Below, in pieces: positions 8,363 to 23,028 of a stretch of 40,323 bases of DNA. Source of the stretch: a virus (lineage: Duplodnaviria; Heunggongvirae; Uroviricota; Caudoviricetes). The first letter of the stretch is position 1, and every line of letters begins with the position of its first letter. The translations under genes and the position numbers were made by a program. The notes below the pieces were generated by a model. That model ran no database searches and was not told where the DNA came from. It saw only the letters and a list, made by a program, of their open reading frames with translations. The stretch lies in the IMG/VR virus record IMGVR_UViG_2695420876_000014; one strand, written 5' to 3'.

Positions 8363-8983
8363 TTAATGCTGGGGAGTGATTTTTTTGTTGTCTGTTGGCT
8401 GGGTATTTTGTGGCGGCGCTTGCAAAGTGGAAGGCTGTTGCAAAGGTACGTGGTCTGACTTTAAAGCTGATACCAGCCCGGGAATCGCAACTATTACAGC
8501 GATAATGACACTAAAAATGGCTAATCGTATAGAAATACCCGACTGAACACCACTAATTGCGGTATTAACCCCTGTTATTTGTCCTTGAATTCCTTCGAAT
8601 CTCCCATTAATTGCTTTTATATCGCCAGCAGCGCTATCCATCTTTCCATCGATCTTGGACGATAGAGAGCTTATGGCTGCATTAAGTGATGCAAATTGGA
8701 CATTAACGCTTTCACGAGATAGAGCCATGTCAGCCCTAATGGAAGAAGCAATAGACTCCATCTCTGCTTTATTAGCAGCTAAGCGAGCATCAAGTTCCTC
8801 TCTGCTGATCGTTCCCACTTCTTCCTCCGTTTGTGGCGGTTTTATGTAATTATTTTGCACCTTGGTGGGAGAATTATCAAATTCAGCCTCAAAATCGGAA
8901 CCGCCAACAACCTTCAACCTCCGGCTTTCAGATATGTTGGTGTCTTGCTTTCCATGATTATTTAAATTACTGTCGTCACTCAT
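8363..8983 (-). CDS. tail-anchored coiled-coil membrane protein of unknown function (third gene of the cI operon)
   Basis: 206 aa: polar N-terminus, long Ser/Ala-rich heptad-like middle, one C-terminal TM helix (IRLAIFSVIIAVIVAIPGLVSAL) and a Pro/Gln-rich tail; ATG overlaps the stop of the upstream gene (ATGA). Confidence 0.6.
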   Translation of the reverse strand: MSDDSNLNNHGKQDTNISESRRLKVVGGSDFEAEFDNSPTKVQNNYIKPPQTEEEVGTISREELDARLAANKAEMESIASSIRADMALSRESVNVQFASLNAAISSLSSKIDGKMDSAAGDIKAINGRFEGIQGQITGVNTAISGVQSGISIRLAIFSVIIAVIVAIPGLVSALKSDHVPLQQPSTLQAPPQNTQPTDNKKITPQH

Positions 8984-18691: not shown

Positions 18692-19015
18692 ATGAAGATG
18701 CCAGAAAAACATGACCTGTTAGCCGCCATTCTCGCGGCAAAGGAACAAGGCATCGGGGCAATCCTTGCGTTTGCAATGGCGTACCTTCGCGGCAGATATA
18801 ATGGCGGTGCGTTTACAAAAACAGTAATCGACGCAACGATGTGCGCCATTATCGCCTGGTTCATTCGTGACCTTCTCGACTTCGCTGGACTAAGTAGCAA
18901 TCTCGCTTATATAACGAGCGTGTTCATCGGCTACATCGGTACTGACTCGATTGGTTCGCTTATCAAACGCTTCGCTGCTAAAAAAGCCGGAGTAGAAGAT
19001 GGTGGAAATCAGTAA
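18692..19015 (+). CDS. S: holin S (class I, dual-start MKM)
   Basis: 107 aa; [39 protein letters not shown]... recognised as lambda S. Confidence 0.95.
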
Positions 19016-19475
19016 TCAACGTAAGGCGTTCCTCGATATGCTGGCGTGGTCAGAGGGAACTGATAACGGACGTCAGAAAACCAGAAATCATGGTTATGAC
19101 GTCATTGTTGGCGGAGAGCTATTCACTGATTACTCCGATCACCCTCGCAAACTTGTCACGCTAAACCCAAAACTCAAATCAACAGCAGCCGGACGTTACC
19201 AGCTTCTTTCCCGTTGGTGGGATGCCTACCGTAAGCAGCTTGGTCTGAAAGACTTCTCTCCCAAAAGTCAGGACGCTGTGGCATTGCAGCAGATTAAAGA
19301 GCGTGGCGCTTTACCGATGATTGATCGCGGTGATATACGTCAGGCAATCGACCGTTGCAGCAATATTTGGGCTTCAATGCCTGGGGCTGGTTACGGTCAG
19401 TTCGAGCATAAGGCTGACAGCCTGATTGCAAAATTCAAAGAAGCAGGCGGAACGGTCAGAGAGATTGAGGTATGA
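18999..19475 (+). CDS. R: endolysin R (lytic transglycosylase)
   Basis: 158 aa; ...[43 protein letters not shown]... recognised as lambda R. Confidence 0.95.
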
Positions 19476-19909
19476 GCAGAGTCACCGCGATTATCTCCGC
19501 TCTGATTATCTGCATCATCGTCTGCCTGTCATGGGCTGTTAATCATTACCGTGATAACGCCATCGCCTACAAAGAGCAGCGCGATAAGGCCGCATCCATC
19601 ATCGCTGACATGCAGAAGCGTCAACGTGATGTAGCAGAACTTGACGCCAGATACACAAAGGAGCTTGCTGATGCTAACGCGACTATCGAAAGTCTCCGTG
19701 CTGATGTTTCTGCTGGTCGTAAGCGCCTGCAAGTCGCCGCCACCTGTACAAAGTCAACGACCGGAGCCAGCAGCATGGGCGATGGAGAAAGCCCAAGACT
19801 TACAGCAGATGCTGAACTCAATTATTACCGTCTCCGAAGTGGAATCGACAGGATAACCGCGCAGGTTAACTACCTGCAGGAATACATCAGGACGCAATGC
19901 CTGAAATGA
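19472..19909 (+). CDS. Rz: spanin inner-membrane subunit Rz (i-spanin)
   Basis: 145 aa; N-terminal [33 protein letters not shown] then coiled-coil; lambda-Rz-like N-terminus with a diverged C-terminus. Confidence 0.85.
19671..19856 (+). CDS. Rz1: spanin outer-membrane lipoprotein Rz1 (o-spanin), embedded in the +1 frame of Rz
   Basis: Start re-assigned to [20 protein letters not shown] (signal peptide and lipobox Cys) followed by a Pro-rich mature peptide; lies wholly inside Rz. Confidence 0.7.
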
Positions 19910-19945
19910 TCGGGCGATGAAAACCAAAAAAAACAGGAGCAATAC

Positions 19946-20221
19946 ATGACTGAGCTTTATCACCGCATCTCAACTTTTCTCTCTGGTTGCTGGGCGTTTA
20001 TCACGTCTATTTCGTTCGCCATCTTTAGTTTCGGTAGCACAGCGTGCTCGCTTAGTCGAGGTCTGTGGCGTGCTATTTCAGCACTAGCGCCAAAATTTTT
20101 ACCTGAAAAGGCTGTTTGGCGAATTGTAGAGCGAATGTGTAGTGAGAGCGTTCGCGAGAAGATTAACGTATTTGGACGTCATCCTCGAAATACAGGCGCA
20201 TTGTGCAGTCCGTTACTGTAG
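19946..20221 (+). CDS. hypothetical protein with a hydrophobic N-terminal half
   Basis: 91-aa ORF with a strong RBS (aggag 7 nt upstream); composition is unusual, so it could be spurious. Confidence 0.4.
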   Translation: MTELYHRISTFLSGCWAFITSISFAIFSFGSTACSLSRGLWRAISALAPKFLPEKAVWRIVERMCSESVREKINVFGRHPRNTGALCSPLL

Positions 20222-20446
20222 TCATTACAAAGCCCATCTACGGGTGGGCTTGATAATGAAACCGGAATTTATTCTGGGAAACCAGTTACGGCAGTACAGC
20301 GAAACAACCCAAGCCAGTAAGTGGGGAAATAACACTGGCAGCCACTGAAAGATGAACCTCCAGCCTTATGGCAAAAAAGATTCTTTGTGGTGGCGGACTG
20401 ATGGAAAGACATCCTAATCAAGCAACCACTCTACAGGGTCATAATT

Positions 20447-20827
20447 ATGAACGACCAGCAAATCGAAAAAGAAATCGTTGAGAAAGGCAAAACGGCACTG
20501 CGAATCACCCCGCAGCACATCGAAGACGTGATTAAAAGCGAGCATTACTTTACTGCTTATGATGGACGAAATGGTGCCATTTCCAGCAACGAATATTGTG
20601 GCAGGGAAAAACCAGAAGAAGGCGATCGTGATTTATCACCATTGAAGTTGCTCACTTTCTGCGTACTGGTGCTGAAGAATGGCTTCACTGTCACCGGAGA
20701 GAGTGCCTGTGCAAGCCCGGAAAACTTTGATGCAGAAATTGGTCGGAAGATTGCCCGGCAGAATGCTGTAAACAAAATCTGGATGCTGGAAGGTTACTTG
20801 CTGAAGCAGAAGTTAAGCGAACAGTAG
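20447..20827 (+). CDS. hypothetical phage protein, possibly N4 gp49 / Sf6 gp66 family
   Basis: 126-aa ORF upstream of the terminase genes; family assignment is from memory and uncertain; flanked by two copies of a conserved hairpin motif. Confidence 0.45.
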   Translation: MNDQQIEKEIVEKGKTALRITPQHIEDVIKSEHYFTAYDGRNGAISSNEYCGREKPEEGDRDLSPLKLLTFCVLVLKNGFTVTGESACASPENFDAEIGRKIARQNAVNKIWMLEGYLLKQKLSEQ

Positions 20828-20930
20828 TTATTACAAAAGCCATTCCCTACAGAGTGGCTTTGATAATGGCTTATACCCTACACGGGATAACTTAACTGAT
20901 ATCCCTTTTAACGGATAAACGGAGCCAACA

Positions 20931-21173
20931 ATGGCAGAGATTATTCCCATGACTGAAGAACAGAAATTCCAGTTAGAGATTTACAAGCTGGTCATGAACC
21001 AGAACGCAGCCGCAGAAGAAGCATTTCAATTCATCGGCACTGACGAGTTGAAGCTTGAGCTATTCAAAATTCACTTCCAGTCAGGCGGCGCTAATTCAGA
21101 TATCACGACCCGCACAATCGAAGCGGTGCGTAAATCGAAGGAAGCGTTAGACCTGTTCACTACCGGAGCATAA
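20931..21173 (+). CDS. hypothetical small protein upstream of terminase
   Basis: 80-aa ORF 2 nt before the small terminase start. Confidence 0.45.
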   Translation: MAEIIPMTEEQKFQLEIYKLVMNQNAAAEEAFQFIGTDELKLELFKIHFQSGGANSDITTRTIEAVRKSKEALDLFTTGA

Positions 21174-21175
21174 AC

Positions 21176-21616
21176 ATGGCGCGCCCAACAAAGTATCAAG
21201 AGGCGTACGCCGAACAGGCACGCAAACTGTGCTTGCTGGGCTACACCGATGCAGAGCTTGCTGATTTCTTCGAAGTCAGTGAGTCAACTATTAACAAGTG
21301 GAAGCTTGATTATCCTAAGTTTTCGGAGTCCATAAAAAAGGGTAAGGCCGTCGCTGATGCAGAAGTTAGTGATCGTCTTTATCAACGCGCTATGGGCTTC
21401 GTGGCTCCAGATATCGATATTCGTGTTATTGAAAACAGAATTGTCGAAACTCCGCTTGAGAAGTATTACCCGCCTGATACAACCGCTGCCATTTTCTGGC
21501 TTAAGAACCGACAGAAGGATAAATGGCGCGACAAGGTTGATCACGAGCTAACAGGCAAAGACGGCGGCGCAATTCAGATTGAAACATCACCGATGAGCAC
21601 TCTATTCGGAAAATGA
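21176..21616 (+). CDS. terminase small subunit (Sf6/P22-like)
   Basis: 146 aa; N-terminal HTH-like region; C-terminus ...GKDGGAIQIETSPMSTLFGK as I recall for the Sf6-type small terminase; its stop overlaps the large-subunit start. Confidence 0.75.
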   Translation: MARPTKYQEAYAEQARKLCLLGYTDAELADFFEVSESTINKWKLDYPKFSESIKKGKAVADAEVSDRLYQRAMGFVAPDIDIRVIENRIVETPLEKYYPPDTTAAIFWLKNRQKDKWRDKVDHELTGKDGGAIQIETSPMSTLFGK

Positions 21617-23028
21617 CCTCGATTAATCCTATCTTTGAACCGTTCATTGAGGCGCATCGCTACAAAGTCGCCAAAGGCGGTCGAGGTAGCGGTAAGTCAT
21701 GGGCAATCGCGAGACTGCTTGTTGAAGCGGTGCGTCGGCAGCCAGTGCGTATTCTCTGCGCTCGTGAACTGCAAAACAGTATCAGCGATTCGGTAATCCG
21801 GTTGCTTGAAGATACCATCGAGCGTGAAGGGTATTCGGCTGAGTTTGAAATTCAGCGTTCAATGATTCGTCATCTCGGAACGAATGCTGAATTCATGTTC
21901 TACGGCATCAAAAACAACCCGACGAAGATTAAATCGCTAGAAGGTATTGATATCTGCTGGGTGGAAGAAGCGGAAGCGGTAACAAAGGAATCGTGGGATA
22001 TCCTGATACCAACCATCCGTAAGCCGTTCTCTGAAATATGGGTGAGCTTCAACCCGAAAAACATCCTCGACGATACCTATCAGCGATTCGTCGTAAACCC
22101 TCCTGATGATATTTGTCTGCTGACGGTGAACTACACCGACAACCCGCACTTTCCTGAAGTTCTCCGTCTGGAGATGGAAGAGTGCAAACGCAGAAATCCG
22201 ACACTGTATCGTCACATCTGGCTTGGTGAGCCAGTAAGCGCAAGTGATATGGCAATCATCAAACGTGAATGGCTTGAAGCCGCAACCGATGCGCACAAGA
22301 AACTCGGATGGAAAGCGAAAGGCGCGGTTGTTTCTGCACATGACCCGTCAGATACAGGGCCGGATGCTAAAGGTTACGCATCGCGTCACGGTTCGGTGGT
22401 TAAGCGCATTGCCGAAGGTCTGCTGATGGACATCAACGATGGTGCTGACTGGGCTACTTCGCTGGCGATTGAAGACGGCGCTGACCATTACCTGTGGGAT
22501 GGTGATGGTGTTGGTGCGGGGCTACGCAGACAGACAACGGAAGCGTTCTCCGGCAAGAAAATCACCGCCACGATGTTCAAGGGCAGCGAATCGCCATTCG
22601 ATGAAGATGCACCATATCAGGCCGGAGCATGGGCCGATGAAGTCGTACAGGGCGACAACGTTCGTACTATTGGCGATGTATTCCGCAATAAGCGAGCGCA
22701 ATTCTATTACGCGCTGGCTGACAGGCTGTATCTGACATATCGGGCGGTTGTCCACGGTGAGTATGCAGACCCCGACGACATGCTGAGTTTCGACAAAGAA
22801 GTGATAGGCGAGAAGATGCTGGAGAAGCTGTTTGCAGAACTGACGCAGATTCAGCGCAAATTCAATAATAACGGGAAGCTGGAGCTTATGACTAAGGTCG
22901 AAATGAAGCAGAAGCTCGGTATTCCATCTCCTAACCTGGCTGATGCGCTGATGATGTGTATGCATTGCCCGGAGTCGGCTTCGCAACCCGACTATTCCAG
23001 TTACTCAATTCCTTGTGGTGTAGGTTGA
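21613..23028 (+). CDS. terminase large subunit
   Basis: 471 aa; Walker A KGGRGSGKSWA near the N-terminus, Walker B-like DICWVEEAE, then a nuclease domain. Confidence 0.9.
   Translation: MTSINPIFEPFIEAHRYKVAKGGRGSGKSWAIARLLVEAVRRQPVRILCARELQNSISDSVIRLLEDTIEREGYSAEFEIQRSMIRHLGTNAEFMFYGIKNNPTKIKSLEGIDICWVEEAEAVTKESWDILIPTIRKPFSEIWVSFNPKNILDDTYQRFVVNPPDDICLLTVNYTDNPHFPEVLRLEMEECKRRNPTLYRHIWLGEPVSASDMAIIKREWLEAATDAHKKLGWKAKGAVVSAHDPSDTGPDAKGYASRHGSVVKRIAEGLLMDINDGADWATSLAIEDGADHYLWDGDGVGAGLRRQTTEAFSGKKITATMFKGSESPFDEDAPYQAGAWADEVVQGDNVRTIGDVFRNKRAQFYYALADRLYLTYRAVVHGEYADPDDMLSFDKEVIGEKMLEKLFAELTQIQRKFNNNGKLELMTKVEMKQKLGIPSPNLADALMMCMHCPESASQPDYSSYSIPCGVG

Follow-up and report, generated by a model that had tools for sequence, protein, structure and literature searches.

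A covarying stem-loop family between genes of the late operons of P22-like and other temperate phages, and its place at mosaic joints

Two related hairpins between the lysis and packaging genes

The DNA analyzed here, referred to below as the window, is the whole 40,323-nucleotide stretch of record IMGVR_UViG_2695420876_000014 and represents a P22-like (Lederbergvirus, Sf6-like) prophage with its late operon on the plus strand. Between the lysis and the packaging genes of this operon occur two copies, designated hairpins A and B, of a short stem-loop which belongs to a family that is widespread in model phages yet has no separate annotation in the records examined. The original prediction for this locus was that two look-alike hairpins bracket a single gene (20447-20827, a gene 66 homolog), that compensatory changes in their arms indicate selection for structure, and that they may act as terminator or processing sites or as recombination joints of a gene cassette. 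The features of the locus are listed in Table 1.

Table 1. Genes and sequence elements of the lysis-packaging interval, in window coordinates (aa, amino acids; nt, nucleotides; ORF, open reading frame)
Feature	Position	Strand	Remarks
Holin	from 18692	+	
Lysozyme	from 18999	+	
Rz	19472-19909	+	
91-aa ORF	19946-20221	+	
Stop codon TAG of the 91-aa ORF	20219-20221	+	preceded by G; 2 nt 5' of the hairpin A core; may belong to an extended motif G-TAR-YC
Hairpin A	20222-20259	+	conserved core 20224-20258; covariance model 65.2 bits, E 2e-13
Conserved spacer	20289-20413	+	common to P22, HK620, N7 and HK97; homology blocks end at 20413
Gene-66 leader (36 nt)	20414-20449	+	left end of the indel; boundary 20413/20414
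Gene 66 homolog	20447-20827	+	Pfam Phage_gp49_66, E 3e-35
Hairpin B	20826-20871	+	conserved core 20830-20868; covariance model 58.2 bits
DUF2560/hkbM homolog	20931-21173	+	
Small terminase subunit	from 21176	+	homology to annotated HK620 gene
Large terminase subunit	from 21613	+	homology to annotated HK620 gene
Portal	from 23030	+	homology to annotated HK620 gene

The presence of the two hairpins was confirmed by a scan of the window, in which the pattern ATTACAAA-N15-35-TGATAATG matched solely at 20224-20258 and 20830-20868, both on the plus strand, and never in 100 shuffled sequences. The limits first given to the copies are right apart from the end at 20869, which lies one base too far (with its leading t, the second copy spans 20829-20868). 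The stem-loop originally described is present as well, as part of a larger hairpin: an outer stem of 5-8 base pairs (bp), based on AUUA/UAAU, is followed by a 2x2 internal loop (CA/GA) and then by 9-10 bp of inner stem capped by a loop of 4-6 nt. In hairpin A the outer stem UCAUUA/UAAUGA pairs 20222-20227 with 20254-20259 and the inner stem AAGCCCAUC/GGUGGGCUU is closed by the loop UACG; in hairpin B the outer stem AGUUAUUA/UAAUGGCU pairs 20826-20833 with 20864-20871 and the inner stem AAAGCCAUUC/GAGUGGCUUU carries the loop CCUACA, the internal loop being CA/GA in both. Folded as sense-strand RNA, both copies are far more stable than their shuffled versions (-24.2 kcal/mol, z -5.6, for A and -20.6 kcal/mol, z -4.8, for B), and the complementary strand folds more weakly (-17.6, z -3.6, and -16.0, z -1.7, respectively). 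Structural alignment of A with B revealed pair-preserving double changes at three inner-stem pairs (G-C/A-U, C-G/G-C and C-G/U-A).

The core of hairpin B starts 2 nt past the stop codon of gene 66, and by orthology this copy is an allele of the hairpin, here named type C, found in P22, HK620, N7 and HK97. A covariance model detected no further significant copies in the window. A match at 8485-8515 (CTATTACAgcGATAATG; 18 bits, E 0.05) lacks the stem, its two flanks being fused directly, and falls within an ORF of the minus strand (8363-8983); it is probably due to chance. The Rfam covariance models gave no match up to E = 10 in window positions 19000-22000.

Structure, strand and distribution of the family

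Compensatory change was followed in two samples of the family. The first comprised 34 distinct sequences that were found by their fixed flanks; since this choice pre-selects the flanks, a second sample of 80 loci was anchored on the Rz protein, independently of the motif, and was searched with a covariance model derived from the first, which gave 110 matches (58 distinct). In the first sample the 14 pairs are paired in 99.6% of cases and five of them show double changes; none of 500 shuffles reached the observed pairing or covariation, and pairing falls to only 30-49% when the register is slid. In the Rz-anchored sample pairing amounts to 97.8%, the pairs on both sides of the internal loop covary (A-U/G-C 39/11 and 47/10) and the CA/GA loop is constant, a combination clearly displayed by type C, which is a diverged allele. 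Between identical flanks the inner stem occurs in 23 different arm combinations. Selection for structure, as originally proposed, is strongly supported by these data.

The family also displays a strand bias. All wobble pairs are U.G on the plus strand, which corresponds to an A.C mismatch on the other strand, and one such wobble is kept in 50 of the 58 distinct sequences; a C(UNCG)G tetraloop closes the hairpin in 10 of 52 distinct sequences. The wobbles, the folding of the two strands and the tetraloops together favor a folded sense strand, most simply that of the late mRNA.

The search for other copies that had been suggested as a check returned hundreds of occurrences in unrelated contexts of phages and prophages. 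Scans of viral contigs yielded about 90 hairpin-forming instances with 35 distinct cores. By BLAST, type A (the form of hairpin A) was found in 147 phage records, including HK97, HK022, ES18, L, HK620, Sf6 and several Stx-converting phages, and no feature is annotated underneath the match in 59 of the 60 records listed. It is also present in 676 of 5426 complete Escherichia coli genomes, at one to three places in each, and a scan of species-representative genomes added Enterobacter, Siccibacter, Pseudocitrobacter, Morganella and Xenorhabdus. HK97 carries two copies of the motif and P22 one; the motif was not found in phage lambda. The commonest allele of the Rz-anchored sample is type C (GGTTATTGCAGAGRCCATTCAATGAGTGGTCTCGACAATGG). 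No feature is annotated at the hairpin positions of Sf6 (37836-37870 and 38500-38538) or HK620 (18883-18917), and literature searches with sequence strings and with descriptions of such hairpins found no account of them, the original papers on HK620 (Clark 2001) and Sf6 (Casjens 2004) being outside the reach of these searches.

Chance similarity or a recent, functionless local duplication might be thought of because just two copies occur in the window, and a simple duplication lacking other occurrences was the outcome that the original prediction had named as contrary to it. What was found instead (no matches expected by chance, hundreds of genomes, unrelated flanks, several genera and compensatory changes) makes this explanation negligible, and it was discarded. 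Prophage small RNAs were likewise rejected as an identity for the hairpins: the Pas RNAs map beside the holin/lysozyme operon and Q, which is another region, and AgvB and AsxR have been reported solely near PasC.

Placement between cistrons and at mosaic joints

The position of the motif was counted in the 74 Rz-anchored loci that have at least 2.5 kb of sequence downstream of Rz. At least one match is present in 65 of them and two in 35. All but one of the 110 matches in the Rz-anchored sample lie on the late-operon strand, the lone minus-strand match coinciding with a plus-strand match site, and the plus-strand matches are all located downstream of Rz, the 4 kb before this gene being free of them. 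In 26 of 71 distinct contexts the motif follows the stop codon of an upstream ORF at a distance of exactly 2 nt, and in 48 the distance is at most 10 nt. When the 120 nt on each side of 90 instances were clustered into flank classes, a stop codon exactly 2 nt upstream was observed in 16 of the 36 independent upstream classes and was preceded by a G in 13 of those 16 (GTAGCC, GTAACC, GTGACC and similar), so the element may extend 6 nt upstream and supply the stop codon.

The placement is intercistronic in every context examined and is not restricted to the interval between lysis and packaging genes. One locus (L146) carries the motif between Q and the lysis genes. In prophages of Morganella and Xenorhabdus it separates the major tail protein gene (phrog_853, E 5e-88), itself preceded by a tail terminator gene, from a DUF6246 gene, starting 2 nt past the stop codon of the former and ending 3 nt short of the AGGAGG Shine-Dalgarno sequence of the latter. 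In phage N7 (L003, 1085-1122) a related hairpin, CCATTACAGGATGCATTTATGAGTGCATCCATTAATGG, with the internal loop CA/AT, was noticed 3' of an inserted HNH endonuclease gene that separates Q from the holin gene, which suggests that the arrangement of a gene followed by a hairpin also occurs upstream of the lysis genes. The occurrence of the motif beyond the lysis-packaging gap (Q-lysis interval, HNH gene, tail genes) indicates a general intercistronic element of late operons that is not tied to one gene.

The close coupling to stop codons raises the question of translation. The hairpin might hide a Shine-Dalgarno-like 3' arm (GGUGG or GAGUGG) together with the AUG of its 3' flank until a ribosome that terminates 2 nt upstream opens it and makes re-initiation possible, or might insulate adjacent cistrons from each other. 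The 2-nt distance from the stop codon in many contexts would fit, as would the 3' flank UGAUAAUG, in which tandem stop codons overlap the AUG, the purine-rich 3' arm about 8 nt before this AUG, and the start codon of gene 66, which coincides with the place of the AUG in the possible degenerate copy discussed below. Against these observations, none of the 71 contexts has an ORF of at least 45 codons starting at the motif AUG, the short ORFs that do start there are not alike in length or sequence from one context to the next, the UGAUAA stops are missing from type C and several stems lack a Shine-Dalgarno-like arm; translational punctuation or coupling is accordingly regarded as very unlikely. 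The annotated 'orf25' of P22 (L208, NC_002371, 2830-2907) starts at the ATG in the type C loop, runs through the 3' arm and is probably not a real gene.

Termination of transcription was the first function proposed originally. The hairpins do possess the G+C-rich stem-loop of an intrinsic terminator, with inner stems of 9-10 bp and the stabilities given above. However, neither copy has a U tract and neither was called by a terminator scan that requires at least 5 T in 8 positions; the 3' tails read UUGAUAAU in A, UUUGAUAAU in B and GACAAUGG in type C as found in P22, HK620 and HK97. For lack of a U tract the motif is not a canonical terminator, and this part of the prediction is not supported. 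Canonical intrinsic terminators (gcggggcttttttatt) were observed immediately 5' of the motif in seven loci (L028, L114, L130, L149, L162, L177 and L198), and the two are therefore distinct elements that can adjoin. No promoter-like site was detected on the plus strand between 19600 and 22800.

A weak or partial terminator is a different matter. Such an element, the terminator of a 'moron' or an attenuator, would stop polymerase that is not modified by Q after accessory genes and let the Q-modified enzyme read through or, in a second form, would lower transcription downstream of highly expressed genes. A G+C-rich stem that is bordered 5' by A-rich sequence (CAAAG) and 3' by moderately U-rich sequence (CUUGAUAAU) speaks for it, as does the location right after gene ends, that of the major tail protein gene included; moreover, terminator-like hairpins whose role is not known have been reported inside operons of phage L (PMC8022706). 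Yet just 2-3 U follow the stem directly, GACAAUGG follows the stem in the commonest allele of the Rz-anchored sample, and the bases that would form the U tract pair with the 5' flank, the outer-stem pair beside the internal loop covarying with its 5' partner. With the negative scan and the canonical terminators that directly precede the motif in several loci, this evidence renders the partial terminator, in its two forms taken together, unlikely.

Another function proposed originally, that of a recombination joint, is borne out in part. The motif is bordered by at least 36 classes of upstream and at least 28 of downstream flank; the downstream class 'gcttatacc...' combines with 12 upstream classes and the class 'aaaccggaattt...' with 8, and four downstream classes combine with one upstream class (hkbL-like). 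Since unrelated flanks reassort on both sides, the motif is a mosaic joint. Similarity between phages begins or ends at its edges, as exemplified by megablast matches to many phages that start at window positions 20217-20223, and in phage 2851 and in locus L008 the sequence found 3' of hairpin B in the window comes directly after a type A hairpin. The motif occurs in many unrelated phage backbones. Empty sites, with both flanks and no hairpin, were found neither in about 400 loci nor in 50,697 phage records, the hairpin being present wherever the flanks co-occur. The lack of empty sites means that the hairpin is not an independently mobile insertion and rules out a mini-element resembling a miniature inverted-repeat transposable element.

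The part of this proposal that did not hold concerns the gene-66 cassette. The two copies lie one on each side of the gene, although only hairpin B abuts it, hairpin A being located 188 nt upstream. Relative to N7, HK620, HK97 and P22, the window contains a clean insertion of 413 nt (20414-20826) that ends exactly at the 5' foot of hairpin B; because it starts at 20414, hairpin A is not the left joint of gene 66. The gene is variably present, as anticipated: it occurs in 10 of the 74 Rz-anchored loci, every time with a hairpin directly 3', and 4 of these 10 lack the upstream type A copy. In phages that lack gene 66, a type A hairpin and a type B or C hairpin form a pair 194-254 nt apart. The existence of the pair without the gene and the missing type A copy at 4 of the 10 gene-66 loci indicate that the two hairpins do not delimit a cassette. 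The distance from the type B or C hairpin to the start of the DUF2560 gene is constant, at 106-109 nt.

The leader of gene 66 may hold a further clue to the left end of the insertion. In local alignment to hairpin A its score is reached by 2 of 2000 shuffles, the ATG of gene 66 (20447-20449) falls at the position of the terminal ATG of the motif, and in locus L107 the leader reads CCATCACAAAA...TCATAATTATG. These similarities are suggestive only of a degenerate third copy of the motif. If the resemblance is real, the indel runs from 5' foot to 5' foot, as expected for an exchange between direct repeats.

Two observations concern the surroundings of the insertion. The 125-nt spacer that precedes it is very strongly conserved, with few variable columns among 70 distinct homologs; no codon-periodic variation and no clear coding signal are apparent in it, and a short ORF (ATG at 20352) has a variable end. 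The spacer could be a non-coding RNA or another cis-element. The gene-66 homolog, of the Gp49 family, carries the label 'anti-CRISPR protein' in the record of Escherichia phage Huey. This label and the sequence GGATAAAC found downstream led to the hairpin being considered as a mimic of the repeats of CRISPR (clustered regularly interspaced short palindromic repeats), which was rejected: no convincing likeness to type I-E or I-F repeats was seen by eye and no Rfam CRISPR-DR model matched.

Reassortment at the motif could also reflect a dedicated DNA site, that is, a folded strand or cruciform recognized by a structure- or site-specific enzyme that moves gene cassettes, in the manner of integron attC sites or of repetitive extragenic palindromes (REP) and their REP-associated tyrosine transposases (RAYT). 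The invariant flanks around a stem that is free in sequence and kept paired, with a conserved mismatch as in attC and REP, would be explained in this way, and so would the location at sharp mosaic junctions, the indel that runs from the foot of a possible degenerate copy to that of hairpin B, as exchange between direct repeats predicts, and the GTAG-like tetranucleotide upstream in 13 of the 36 classes. On the other hand, no recombinase co-occurs with the motif, which is found in widely different contexts and phage types; an attC core is lacking, and neither empty sites nor solo excision products were seen. RNA offers a simpler explanation for the tight link with stop codons and with the sense strand, and short-homology recombination suffices for the observed joints. 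A DNA-level recombination site is for these reasons decidedly unlikely. It is quite improbable that a dedicated trans-acting factor, recognizing the invariant flanks and the CA/GA loop of the folded single strand, moves units of a gene plus its hairpin among temperate phages of the Enterobacterales, as in attC systems, with the RNA hairpin as a by-product. A dedicated structure-specific recombination system is regarded as less likely than crossover at short homologies, and translational coupling less likely still.

A putative RNA signal that doubles as a recombination linker

The explanation favored here, to which about even confidence is given, is that the motif is a punctuation hairpin of the sense-strand RNA, a processing and/or 3'-stability signal, which doubles as a linker in recombination. 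Elements of about 35-40 nt would be transcribed within the late mRNA directly after the stop codon of the upstream gene and would fold on the sense strand into an outer stem rich in A and U (AUUR/YAAU, with a closing C-G pair), an invariant CA/GA loop and a G+C-rich inner stem that is free in sequence so long as pairing is kept. The invariant flanks and the internal loop suggest recognition by a factor shared across Enterobacterales hosts, so that the hairpin would be read as a post-transcriptional signal. From its anatomy (16-20 bp, internal loop, AU-rich base and G+C-rich top) and its position we infer processing and/or stabilization of 3' ends; the most likely action would be that of a site for endonucleolytic processing of the RNase III type and/or of a barrier to 3' exonucleases; in either case the hairpin would determine the relative stability of the mRNA segment that precedes it. 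The near-identical 35-40 nt would also provide short homologies at which phage or host recombination exchanges, inserts or deletes accessory blocks such as gene 66; near-identity over this length between unrelated genes would be enough to explain the role in crossover.

Several points weigh against this explanation. The data show the structure, its covariation, strand, position and distribution, and the location at mosaic joints; action at the RNA level, the nature of the factor and the mechanism of recombination are inferred. The outer stem, of 5-8 bp, is short and marginal for RNase III. The covariation may represent perhaps only 6-8 independent stem lineages, and searches by exact flanks pre-select those flanks. 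G.T wobbles are tolerated in single-stranded DNA too, strand and orientation are confounded with the conserved organization of the genomes, and a DNA hairpin on the same strand would be possible. In the Rz-anchored sample the 3' flank GAYAAUG shows stronger conservation than the bases it pairs with, a hint of some sequence-specific role beyond the one proposed, and a DNA-binding or recombination factor could equally be the reason why the flanks are invariant from E. coli to Xenorhabdus.

For a role in processing or stability, the RNase III sites of T7, mRNA segments stabilized by REP and lambda sib serve as analogies. Like T7 sites of the R1.1 type and lambda sib/tI, the motif is a hairpin of about two helical turns with an internal loop, set at an intercistronic position in an extended phage transcript. 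Cleavage of T7 sites by RNase III leaves a protective 3' hairpin on the upstream mRNA. A processing site is plausible. No sequence similarity to the T7 RNase III sites or to lambda sib was established, the lower stem is short and lambda itself lacks the motif. With REP the motif shares an imperfect palindrome of 35-40 nt (35-39 here) that is extragenic and often lies just past stop codons within operons. Transcribed REP hairpins stabilize the upstream mRNA. The GTAG found 5' of the REP palindrome may have a counterpart in the G-TAG, G-TAA or G-TGA placed 2 nt upstream in 13 of the 36 classes, where it coincides with the stop codon of the upstream gene. Unlike REP and bacterial interspersed mosaic elements, the motif has another sequence, is limited to 1-3 copies per E. 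coli genome, all in prophages and in one orientation, and occurs without clusters or a RAYT transposase. Integron attC sites resemble it in their conserved outer sequences, variable paired center and conserved unpaired bases, and they too follow the ORF of a cassette and work via one folded strand; the flanks of the motif, ATTACAAAG and CTTGATAATG, differ from attC in lacking the RYYYAAC/GTTRRRY core, its length is 35-40 nt compared with 57-141 nt, and no integron integrase was seen, although no search aimed at one was made.

As regards the role in recombination, modular theory holds that linker sequences, short conserved sequences at the mosaic junctions of lambdoid phages, are foci of recombination, and the 'boundary sequences' (bsq) annotated in the Sf6 record reportedly go back to work on HK620 by Clark and colleagues in 2001. 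The motif resembles both as a short conserved sequence at the junctions of mosaic segments. The lone bsq in the stretch of Sf6 that was examined, bsq7, lies inside gene 63 and not at the hairpins, and to our knowledge bsq elements have not been described as covarying hairpins. A close precedent is found in T4-type phages, where promoter-early stem-loops (PeSLs), short conserved intergenic elements, join a strong sigma-70-like promoter to a stem-loop with demonstrated terminator activity. PeSLs lie on both sides of non-essential ORFs in variable genome regions, and insertions, deletions and replacements there are accounted for by recombination between the copies (Arbiol et al., 2010, PMC2839356; PMC4122927). 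Copies of the present motif likewise flank variable ORFs and coincide with the boundaries of indels and replacements, as seen in the 36 x 28 flank classes and in the indel that ends at the foot of hairpin B. It differs from PeSLs in its lack of a promoter (19600-22800, plus strand) and of a U tract, in its occurrence in temperate lambdoid and related phages, and in the invariance of its flanks and internal loop around a stem that varies. Conserved intergenic stem-loops at module boundaries are already known (PeSLs, PMC2839356), and the family described here is new among them.

If the proposed explanation is correct, P22, Sf6, HK97, HK022, L, ES18, HK620 and the Stx-converting phages carry a common, unannotated cis-element of late operons, which would offer a testable handle on how expression is graded along a single long late transcript. 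It would also help to address why the mosaic boundaries of lambdoid phages fall with such precision between genes, that is, short conserved linkers versus random joining followed by selection. The region between lysis and packaging genes is a place where genes for lysogenic conversion and anti-defense tend to sit, and the motif is a practical marker for the boundaries of cassettes in this hypervariable accessory region.

Other repeated sequences were noticed next to the motif. Strings with stop codons in all frames (TGATTAATTGA, TGATTAACTAA, TAATTAAATAG and TAACTAATTAATTAA) lie 5' of it or at other gene junctions, in 5 of the 36 upstream classes compared with 0 of 270 control 24-mers; they were seen 5' of the motif in loci L020, L046, L099, L143, L155, L183 and L186, and also in L003 at 1060-1075 and about 1255-1265. 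On the 3' side, inverted repeats of the type TTATCCC...GGGATAA occupy 20871-20918 of the plus strand, between hairpin B and the DUF2560 gene, and recur 3' of the motif in many phages. A second hairpin with conserved arms, G-TTATCCCC-N5-6-GGGGATAA, directly follows the motif in many phages (for instance in L040, L141, L150 and L153), and its version in the window reads TTATACCC..GGGATAA and then GATATCC..GGATA. In many contexts a mini-ORF of seven codons extends from the ATG of the motif to the TAA of GGATAA and is possibly a mere by-product of this second hairpin.

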